A DNA stretch of 53,740 nucleotides, the filler included, from Dimargaris cristalligena (Eukaryota), in the NCBI GenBank assembly GCA_003614675.1. It is 2 parts of 2 records of this genome, joined end to end, with 100 filler letters (N's around TTAATTAATTAA, not from the genome) between each part and the next. Parts side by side here need not be neighbours in the genome. Positions count along the whole stretch, not along the records: positions 26,927 to 53,740 come from ML002535.1; 1 more part is not named here. One strand, 5' to 3'. Positions 43,888 to 44,700 of this stretch are shown here, in pieces. Each line of letters begins with the position of its first letter. The stretch's first letter is position 1. Made by a program: the position numbers and the translations under genes. The notes beneath the pieces were generated by a model, which ran no database searches, had not been told where the DNA came from, and saw only the letters and a program-made list of their open reading frames with translations.

Positions 43888-44700
43888 TTAGGTTTCCACG
43901 GCCAGGGTTTTCAAGCCCGCGATCCCCACTCTGGGGAGAATACCCGCCACGTAGATCCCTACTTCCCGCTGACCGATGCGGTACACACAGCATTGGGCCA
44001 TGATGTCAGCAGCCCATTGGGTGGAATCACGAGCGGTGGCTGGATTCGAGGACGCCTGGTTGCCGCCCCCGCCCCCGAGGTCCGTGGTGAACATGAGGTA
44101 AAACCGGTCGCGCAATTCCTTGAATTGCCGGTGTTGGCCCATTGACGTTTCTTCGAACAAGAGTGGTCCGAAAAACTCGTCCAGCGATTGGATTCGACTA
44201 CGGAATGGGGGAGCGGATGCGTAGAGACTGTCCCCCGACGATGAATCCGAGGACGGACCGGACTCCCGCCTACGGCTATGGCTATGGTTACGGTCACCTG
44301 ACTCCTCTCTCGAATGGGCAGCAGGTTCTTCTTCTTCTTCTTCTTCTTCGTCCTCAGCAATGTCCACCATACTCCCGTCGGGGCTCAGATTAGCTAAGCT
44401 ACCATCGTCTTGGTCTTCGTCGGACGACTGGACACAGACGCGAACGCGACCGGCATTGGCGCAGCGCATAAGGACATGGCGGAGATTGGTGTGGGTTTCG
44501 TGGCGGTACATGACGGCGGCGAATTCGGCGGCGGTTGGGGGCAGTTGCGTGTTACTGGCCCCGCAGCGTTCGAGCTCGTCGGCGGGTATGAAGAAATAGT
44601 CAAAAGGGGAGTCGCTCTCGGATATGTAGAATAGGTCCCGGGCGGCCGAGGTGAGAGCCGACTCACATATCTGTGAGGATAGGGAACCGCTCATGGGCAT
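43888..44700 (-). CDS. Nuclease A inhibitor (NuiA)-like protein with acidic insertion (270 aa, intronless)
   Basis: LTSAARDLFYISESDSPFDYF, SLDEFF, QFKEL and VYRIGQREVGIYVAGILPRVGIAGLKTLAVET* correspond to cyanobacterial NuiA blocks as recalled (LLFMSESEYPFEVF, DIDSFF, VYRLGEVELDVYVIG...LAGISTKVVET). Minus-strand TATAAA at 45038-45043. Confidence 0.85.
   Translation of the reverse strand: MPMSGSLSSQICESALTSAARDLFYISESDSPFDYFFIPADELERCGASNTQLPPTAAEFAAVMYRHETHTNLRHVLMRCANAGRVRVCVQSSDEDQDDGSLANLSPDGSMVDIAEDEEEEEEEEPAAHSREESGDRNHSHSRRRESGPSSDSSSGDSLYASAPPFRSRIQSLDEFFGPLLFEETSMGQHRQFKELRDRFYLMFTTDLGGGGGNQASSNPATARDSTQWAADIMAQCCVYRIGQREVGIYVAGILPRVGIAGLKTLAVET

Follow-up and report, generated by a model that had tools for sequence, protein, structure and literature searches.

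A fungal member of the NuiA nuclease-inhibitor family in Dimargaris cristalligena, with an acidic insert and a proposed intracellular role

The gene and its predicted protein

The fungus Dimargaris cristalligena carries, within a stretch of 53,740 nucleotides that we analysed as a whole (assembly GCA_003614675.1; hereafter the window), a gene for a protein of the NuiA family, named after the inhibitor of the cyanobacterial nuclease NucA. The gene is an uninterrupted 813-base open reading frame (ORF) on the minus strand at positions 43888-44700, a complete and intronless coding sequence of 270 codons plus TAA that has no internal stops, matches the Pfam NuiA model, and whose orthologues can be aligned from first Met to last Thr. 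It starts with an ATG at 44700, with a second in-frame ATG at 44694, and ends with a TAA at 43888-43890. We refer to the product of 270 amino acids (aa) as P0001.

An earlier note on this DNA had called the ORF a NuiA gene on the strength of its SES[D/E] motif and a C-terminal VET directly before the stop, and translation bears this out, with SESD at residues 27-30 and an end reading LAVET-TAA. The HMMER comparison proposed in that note also comes out in its favour: against the Pfam model NuiA (PF07924), hmmscan gives P0001 45.1 bits (E 1.6e-11), above the gathering cut-off of 22.1. The match consists of two stretches that reach both ends of the profile, the better of them pairing residues 234-270 with profile positions 94-130 of 130. 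For a second model, NuiA_2 (PF23151), P0001 stays below the gathering threshold (14 bits vs 27, E 0.058). Since 35 of the 43 sequences in our working alignment match NuiA_2 at E<=0.001, and all 43 match NuiA, the two models overlap, and on these scores P0001 falls on the NuiA side. A scan with the prokaryotic naming models of NCBIfam returned no family for P0001 at E<=1. The assignment is already visible in public annotation, where the orthologues carry a precomputed NuiA domain and a Glomus protein bears the name 'Nuclease A inhibitor-like'.

Two signature elements known from the inhibitor of Anabaena are retained in P0001. In a phmmer search of Protein Data Bank (PDB) chain sequences, NuiA was the only match at E<0.001 (2o3b_B, 5.3e-4; 1j57_A, 5.8e-4), and it was found in two blocks: residues 8-37, in which YISESDSPF is aligned to LFMSESEYPF of NuiA, and residues 181-270, which pair with NuiA chain positions 47-136 so that GLKTLAVET runs end-to-end with GISTKVVET. 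The SESD motif (Ser27-Glu28-Ser29-Asp30; 44611..44622, minus strand) places Glu28 opposite the first Glu of the Anabaena SESE, and the end of the gene, Glu269-Thr270-TAA (43888..43896, minus strand), provides a hydroxyl-bearing last residue that corresponds to the C-terminal Thr of NuiA. These positions are strongly conserved. S27, E28, T265 and E269 are kept at >=90% in the 43-sequence alignment, and SE.[DE] is present in 24/24 fungal and 24/26 other sequences, the two exceptions being N-terminally short fragments. Terminal E-T or E-S, directly before the stop, occurs in 49/50 of the NuiA-family sequences examined: in 23/24 fungal proteins, the exception being a truncated Racocetra gene model, and as E-T in 26/26 of the others.

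We modelled P0001 with AlphaFold2 on the 43-sequence alignment, which gave a mean predicted local distance difference test score (pLDDT) of 78.7 and a predicted template modelling score (pTM) of 0.71. Confidence is distributed unevenly along the chain, with pLDDT 92-96 at residues 11-80 and above 90 for most of 171-200 and 241-270, 52-63 at residues 91-160, and about 49 at 211-220. From the phmmer blocks and this profile, the N-terminal part comprises residues 1-89 (44434..44700, minus strand), made up of a NuiA block (helix 4-19, strand 34-39) and a helix pair (57-65 and 71-83). The C-terminal NuiA block, which Pfam also recognises, spans residues 166-270 (43891..44205, minus strand) and is modelled as a DEFF strand-helix, a helix at 190-205 and a three-stranded sheet at 237-268, with pLDDT 94-97 outside a Gly/Ser-rich, low-confidence loop (residues 206-224; 44029-44085, minus strand). 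The helix pair at 57-83 is confidently modelled; in the alignment, of which every second row was viewed, it is found only in the three Dimargaritales relatives, with gaps elsewhere.

Between the two blocks lies an insert of 76 residues (90-165; 44206..44433, minus strand) that by pLDDT, composition and orthologue alignment appears to be disordered and lineage-specific. It contains 17 Ser, 13 Glu and 10 Asp residues, including a run of eight Glu, and has a net charge of -18. Its length and sequence vary among the three Dimargaritales orthologues, reaching ~165 residues in Tieghemiomyces, with the frame open in all of them, and its GC content at third codon positions (GC3) is 0.539, lower than in the blocks on either side (0.72 and 0.70). 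We considered whether the insert might be an unspliced intron, which is unlikely given that the frame runs open through it in all three species.

Structure searches with the model lead to the same family as the sequence. Foldseek against the PDB places 2o3b_B, NuiA bound to NucA, at the top (E 1.5e-4, prob 1.00, TM by target 0.68), followed by 1j57, with all other matches at E >0.2. VIA-align, which is independent of Foldseek, also ranked NuiA first among 48,161 representative chains (1j57_A; Z 6.8, root-mean-square deviation 4.4, 127 aligned, 23% identity), ahead of Maf1 at Z 5.2; a Z below 8 in this method is supportive only jointly with the sequence match. In the model, P0001 thus has the alpha/beta fold of NuiA, with its two halves split by extra material. 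Taken together, the ORF at 43888-44700 is a genuine, intact and conserved nuclear gene of a fungus from the Dimargaritales (Kickxellomycotina), and its NuiA-family product has kept the fold and both signature elements.

The N-terminus of P0001 is consistent with a protein that lacks both a signal peptide and a mitochondrial presequence, as the composition and hydropathy of this region suggest: the first 30 residues contain one K+R and four D+E, there is no hydrophobic run, and the maximum 15-residue hydropathy over the first 40 windows is 0.55. The absence of a signal peptide had been claimed from the start and is borne out by these values.

Around the gene, a Pfam scan of all 120 stop-to-stop frames of the window >=90 aa identified a Ras-family GTPase (16664-17569, plus strand), a Glyco_transf_15 protein (21095-22492, plus), an FAD synthase-like protein (23964-25346, plus), a P450 (28127-29014, plus), Ribosomal_L18 (RPL18; 37942-38508, minus), RXT2_N (RXT2; 40259-41386, minus) and a ClpX-like AAA_2 / ClpB_D2-small protein (50032-52244, plus). 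The Pfam-matched genes around P0001 are ordinary eukaryotic genes, and the RPL18, Rxt2 and ClpX neighbours named in the earlier note are all among them. That note had also stated that no nuclease lies next to the gene. This holds for the whole 53.7-kb window: none of the 120 frames matches Endonuclease_NS, and the motif [DN]RGH, which we take to be the active-site motif of Endonuclease_NS, is missing from all six frames. Several other stretches of the window had no Pfam match at E<=1e-5. The largest ORF, at 6974-11461 (minus), encodes 1495 aa from ATG to stop (1505 from stop to stop) and belongs in this group, as do frames at 33779-34414 (plus, 212 aa), 35778-36461 (plus, 228 aa) and 48605-49459 (plus, 285 aa), the last of which sits in a GC-rich (0.58-0.62) stretch resembling the confirmed genes. 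Two runs of 44 N (88 N in all), at 26827-26870 and 26883-26926, lie a short way upstream of the P450 gene fragment and are presumably assembly gaps.

Relatives and origin of the fungal branch

A word-indexed search found two close relatives only, in Tieghemiomyces parasiticus (355 aa, E 5.8e-79) and Dimargaris verticillata (218 aa, E 3.4e-55), both annotated as hypothetical and both with a precomputed NuiA domain. The three Dimargaritales proteins share 78 invariant positions, and P0001 and the Tieghemiomyces protein are 78% identical over conserved columns; the insert is not conserved. An exhaustive HMMER search of 1.84 billion representatives with a Dimargaritales profile yielded 29 matches at E<=0.001, of which these three proteins alone fall below 1e-10. 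The next-best matches are again fungal, from Scutellospora calospora (E 1.7e-9), Ambispora leptoticha, Geosiphon pyriformis and Basidiobolus ranarum, and further ones are bacterial or unnamed proteins of 90-182 aa, including proteins from Planctomycetia and from a Pyrinomonadaceae metagenome-assembled genome. One apparent relative, P0019 (1124 aa), was dropped, as it matched only the low-complexity part. Although the search was not restricted by length, no form of NuiA fused to a nuclease was found among its matches.

Profiles built from the fungal sequences reach further. With seven fungal sequences, 19 proteins were found, namely 12 from named Glomeromycota species, 5 unnamed, P0001 and its Tieghemiomyces orthologue, and a second fungal profile added Basidiobolus meristosporus, the cyanobacterium Aliterella atlantica (P0056, 187 aa) and unnamed relatives. 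In all, more distant relatives of P0001 occur in two species of Basidiobolus and in 14 named species of Glomeromycota. Proteins of these two groups have in common an N-terminal [DE]YL.F[LV] motif, which occurs in 16/24 fungal and 0/26 other sequences and does not depend on the alignment columns of the trees described below. One Glomeromycota protein, P0031 from Dentiscutata erythropus (373 aa), has an unrelated N-terminal part of ~170 residues with a hydrophobic segment ahead of a normal Glomeromycota NuiA, and is probably a product of merged genes. In the ESM Atlas, the clusters nearest the Glomeromycota protein are eukaryotic, with 198, 50 and 97 members that are mostly from Ascomycota and Basidiomycota and carry NuiA_2 and/or NuiA according to the cluster summaries; a structure search of the Atlas with P0001 lists similar clusters, also as leads from cluster summaries. 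Because of these leads in Ascomycota and Basidiomycota, the NuiA superfamily is probably spread over most fungal phyla.

Phylogenetic trees set the fungal proteins apart from nearly all others. A first tree (IQ-TREE, 43 rows, 143 columns, LG+C20+F+G4) separated 22 fungal sequences and one unnamed sequence from 20 bacterial or unnamed ones with support of 100/98. In a second tree (49 rows, 146 columns), to which six sequences had been added and from which P0019, the merged P0031 and the near-identical P0046-P0053 were left out, a split supported at 100/99 places 23 fungal and three Aliterella-type sequences opposite 23 others, bacterial or unnamed. Within the fungal part, the Dimargaritales trio forms a clade (99/99) with P0001 sister to Tieghemiomyces (96/85), and the Aliterella-type group adjoins Basidiobolus with weak support (80/76). 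Constraining the fungi to be monophyletic lowers the log-likelihood by 1.2 units, and the approximately unbiased test does not reject this arrangement (p-AU 0.356). The nearest bacterial relatives of the fungal clade are this Aliterella-type subgroup (P0056, P0009 and P0054). Among 401 cyanobacterial genomes no relative closer than 38% identity was found, and the best metagenome relative, at a locus that we label L074, reaches 51%. Both P0056 and the L074 protein (3959-4474, plus strand) have a signal-peptide-like hydrophobic N-terminus and may be exported NuiA-like proteins; no [DN]RGH ORF lies within 4 kb of the gene on L074. We read these trees as pointing to a single, old lineage in fungi, to which a small subgroup from cyanobacteria stands closest among the bacteria. 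As the trees are unrooted, they do not give the direction of any transfer.

How old such a transfer would be bears on the question of whether the gene came into D. cristalligena itself from bacteria. The earlier note had called the gene bacterial-type and possibly horizontally acquired, and there are reasons to entertain a recent acquisition, or else bacterial contamination, because the family was first described in cyanobacteria and most named matches beyond the fungal clade are bacterial. The results contradict this explanation, and we give it next to no chance. P0001 lies among eukaryotic genes (RPL18, RXT2, ClpX, Ras, GT15 and P450), and its GC of 0.584 and GC3 of 0.657 are typical of its neighbours, the values for eight other coding stretches being 0.51-0.64 and 0.55-0.80. 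It has orthologues in two other Dimargaritales species, is nested in a fungal clade that is split at 100/99 from 23 sequences of bacterial or unnamed origin, and has no bacterial counterpart more than 60% identical among the 1.84 billion representatives. The phylogeny that the note had asked for likewise goes against the horizontal part of its claim, in the sense of a gain by this fungus itself, with Glomeromycota and Basidiobolus in the same clade as P0001 and fungal monophyly not rejected. Recent acquisition by D. cristalligena is excluded, and any transfer from bacteria to fungi would have been ancient, given the Dimargaritales orthologues, the inclusion of Glomeromycota and Basidiobolus in the fungal clade, the typical GC and GC3, and the Atlas leads in Ascomycota and Basidiomycota.

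Nuclease inhibition and other possible roles

What NuiA-family proteins do in bacteria can be approached through their association with nucleases. We examined 61 bacterial NuiA loci, 57 of them cyanobacterial by title, and found a [DN]RGH ORF nearby in 33; none was seen in the available flanks of the other 28, several loci end early, and the count is accordingly a lower bound. All 33 neighbouring ORFs match Pfam Endonuclease_NS at E<=3.6e-48, and they are mostly convergent and directly downstream. Of the 401 cyanobacterial genomes, 49 have NuiA and 55 have Endonuclease_NS (E<=1e-10), the nuclease being found in 35/49 genomes with NuiA and in 20/352 of the others (odds ratio 41.5, Fisher 6e-25, uncorrected for relatedness). 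NuiA and Endonuclease_NS are therefore strongly linked in cyanobacteria. Two NuiA loci that have no neighbouring nuclease sit in genomes that encode Endonuclease_NS elsewhere, so unlinked pairs exist as well.

Some unusual architectures came to light in these genomes. Endonuclease_NS domains occur inside giant frames of 6,800-10,400 aa (in our labels, G002:C2:222832-223542, G311:C2:23902-24636, and G106:C83 and C97), and several longer frames of 295-678 aa each contain two matches to the NuiA model (G323:C1:125690-126439, G177:C64:68606-69442, G149:C1:4583249-4584094, G112:C42, G025:C1 and G109:C33), which suggests tandem or embedded NuiA-like domains. An Atlas cluster of 104 members from Bacteroidota combines NuiA (100%) with HIT (99%) and DcpS_C (99%), so that the fold is fused to a nucleotide hydrolase.

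We propose, by analogy with the bacterial pairs, that P0001 is an intracellular, stoichiometric and tight-binding inhibitor of an Endonuclease_NS nuclease, most probably an Nuc1/EndoG-type enzyme of the fungus itself or a secreted one, and we put the probability of this reading at roughly 0.55. Since P0001 has no signal peptide and no presequence-like N-terminus, it would stay in the cytosol or nucleus. Its partner there, bound 1:1 and tightly, would be a beta-beta-alpha-metal nuclease from family PF01223 (Endonuclease_NS) whose gene lies in another part of the genome. Thr270 would enter the active site of the nuclease and bridge the catalytic Mg2+, as in the solved NucA-NuiA complex, and Glu28 of the SESD motif would lie beside it at the metal site. 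The most probable target would be the fungus's own mitochondrial Nuc1/EndoG-type enzyme or a secreted relative of it, so that P0001 may guard nuclear DNA and cytosolic RNA against nuclease that is mis-sorted or released. We speculate further that the acidic insert could mimic DNA and make additional electrostatic contacts with the enzyme's basic groove for nucleic acids.

The mechanism borrows from what has been described for the bacterial complex. Ghosh et al. are said to have described in 2007 a functional role for Glu24 in the SESE motif of Anabaena NuiA. In the portion of PMC5587815 available to us, the C-terminal threonine of NuiA coordinates the catalytic Mg2+ of the nuclease, and the accessible part of PMC2790893 likewise gives the terminal residue a role at the catalytic metal; a source available in excerpt adds that this residue displaces water from the metal's hydration shell. 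For the NucA-NuiA pair, an excerpt of PMC5374557 lists an experimental pKd of 11.49 and mentions an E24-D121 interface contact, with chain labels apparently swapped.

Several observations weigh against an inhibitor of this kind. The similarity of P0001 to characterised NuiA is low, at 15-23% identity in structural alignments, and ~140 residues between the two NuiA blocks, on which the earlier note was silent, are absent from bacterial NuiA. In cyanobacteria, 14/49 NuiA-positive genomes have no Endonuclease_NS at E<=1e-10, and many of these NuiA matches are weak, partial or inside longer frames, so NuiA-like domains are not always paired with Endonuclease_NS; the fusion with HIT and DcpS_C also hints at other roles for the fold. 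The window contains no partner nuclease, but this has little weight, because eukaryotes do not have operons and 28/61 bacterial loci likewise show none. Meiss et al. reportedly found Anabaena NuiA to be highly specific for NucA, so that belonging to the family does not by itself imply inhibition of an EndoG-type enzyme.

Much of this would also be expected if the NuiA fold had been kept while nuclease inhibition was lost, the protein being re-used for some other basic partner, for instance a protein of chromatin or one that binds RNA. The residues added relative to bacterial NuiA, the missing partner in the window, the cyanobacterial genomes with NuiA and no Endonuclease_NS, and the other architectures (the HIT/DcpS_C cluster and the tandem or long cyanobacterial frames) all fit such a change of role, as does the identity of the second-rank structural matches, Maf1 and phiKZ Dip, which are protein-binding regulators with low scores. 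We consider it unlikely nonetheless, because the most conserved features in fungi and bacteria alike are the SE motif and the hydroxyl residue at the stop, and a loss of active-site plugging is hard to reconcile with that. A lower probability still attaches to an intracellular immunity against foreign nucleases, be they the secreted Serratia-type enzymes of Mucorales hosts or bacterial nuclease effectors. The carriers found by sequence search do live in intimate contact with other organisms: Dimargaritales are mycoparasites of Mucorales, Glomeromycota are plant symbionts with endobacteria, and the gut of animals is home to Basidiobolus. An inhibitor directed against the nucleases of others might also resemble some of the nearest bacterial relatives (P0056 and L074), whose N-terminus looks like a signal peptide and which have no nuclease beside them. 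P0001, in contrast, would meet only those nucleases that enter the cytoplasm, and if the many Ascomycota and Basidiomycota clusters of the Atlas are reliable leads, they favour a general cell-biological role over a lifestyle-specific one. Finally, an untranscribed or decaying relic might be suspected from the low-complexity middle of P0001 with its lower GC3, and this we think very improbable: 270 codons are open, the position of the stop, immediately behind the last Thr, is conserved, the high identity to Tieghemiomyces and the positions invariant in three species argue for constraint, and the fold is predicted with confidence.

Our preferred reading of P0001 as an intracellular Endonuclease_NS inhibitor can be extended to a broader but doubtful picture, which we offer tentatively. 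In it, fungi would hold ancient endogenous inhibitors of EndoG/Nuc1 built on the bacterial NuiA fold, the Dimargaritales version would have gained an acidic, DNA-mimicking disordered arm, and P0001 would act in the cytosol or nucleus to hold back the cell death and genome damage that a mitochondrial nuclease drives.

Comparison with known inhibitors

Anabaena sp. PCC 7120 NuiA (PDB 1J57; NucA complex 2O3B) is the closest characterised system, belonging to the same Pfam family and being the best structural match by two methods. The two proteins share the N-terminal (S)SE(S)[DE]-PF element and the C-terminal G-L-x-T-x-x-V-E-T with the stop right after Thr, and neither has a signal peptide, which fits an intracellular guard. 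They differ in size (270 aa for P0001 vs 135), P0001 adding the helix pair, the acidic insert of 76 residues and the Gly/Ser loop at 206-224. They also differ in genetic setting, as the P0001 gene is eukaryotic and monocistronic with no nuclease beside it, whereas cyanobacterial NuiA genes are usually arranged tail to tail with a nuclease gene.

Closer to home are the fungal NuiA/NuiA_2 (PF23151) proteins of Glomeromycota and Basidiobolus, which form one clade with P0001 in the trees and share with it the FIP...LP..A.FA and DEFF.P blocks and the terminal E-[TS]. Unlike the Dimargaritales proteins, they have the N-terminal extension with [DE]YL.F[LV] and no long acidic insert. Clusters of NuiA/NuiA_2 proteins from Dikarya are likened to P0001 by Atlas summaries alone. 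On sequence grounds, P0001 belongs to an old and unstudied fungal branch of the NuiA family. Our literature search found no mention of NuiA-like, PF23151, PF07924 or IPR012489, leaving the fungal NuiA/NuiA_2 proteins uncharacterised in that literature, and no inhibitor of fungal Nuc1; among papers retrieved for NuiA and fungi, none concerns a fungal NuiA, judging by titles and the beginnings of abstracts.

Proteins that inhibit EndoG-type nucleases have been described in Anabaena (NuiA) and in Drosophila (EndoGI), and according to published abstracts KU80 was proposed for mammals only in 2026. EndoGI (PDB 3ISM) would be the functional analogue of P0001, since the role we propose is the same, that of an extramitochondrial eukaryotic protein neutralising an Endonuclease_NS enzyme. 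Both EndoGI and NuiA engage the catalytic metal site, and EndoGI places acidic loops in the DNA groove (excerpts of PMC2790893 and PMC5587815), of which the acidic insert of P0001 is reminiscent. The analogy is one of function only. EndoGI has an unrelated, all-helical tandem-domain fold with no sequence relationship to P0001, and the model of P0001 shows no domains of this type and has the alpha/beta NuiA fold instead. In the available part of PMC2790893, the EndoGI fold is described as distinctly different from that of NuiA, EndoGI is said by the authors to have evolved independently of NuiA, and contact with the metal is given as direct for NuiA but as mediated by a hydration-shell water for EndoGI.

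As it stands, our analysis offers the correct annotation of a database-visible family member with an unusual acidic insert, together with a functional hypothesis drawn by analogy. If the fungal NuiA clade does indeed inhibit Nuc1/EndoG, it would provide a handle on how fungi restrain a nuclease of cell death and mitochondrial DNA turnover, and a clear example of a bacterial nuclease/antidote pair in which the antidote lives on in eukaryotes as an unlinked gene. P0001 and its relatives would then be to fungi what EndoGI is to Drosophila, but with an origin in the inherited logic of a bacterial nuclease and its antidote and not in invention.

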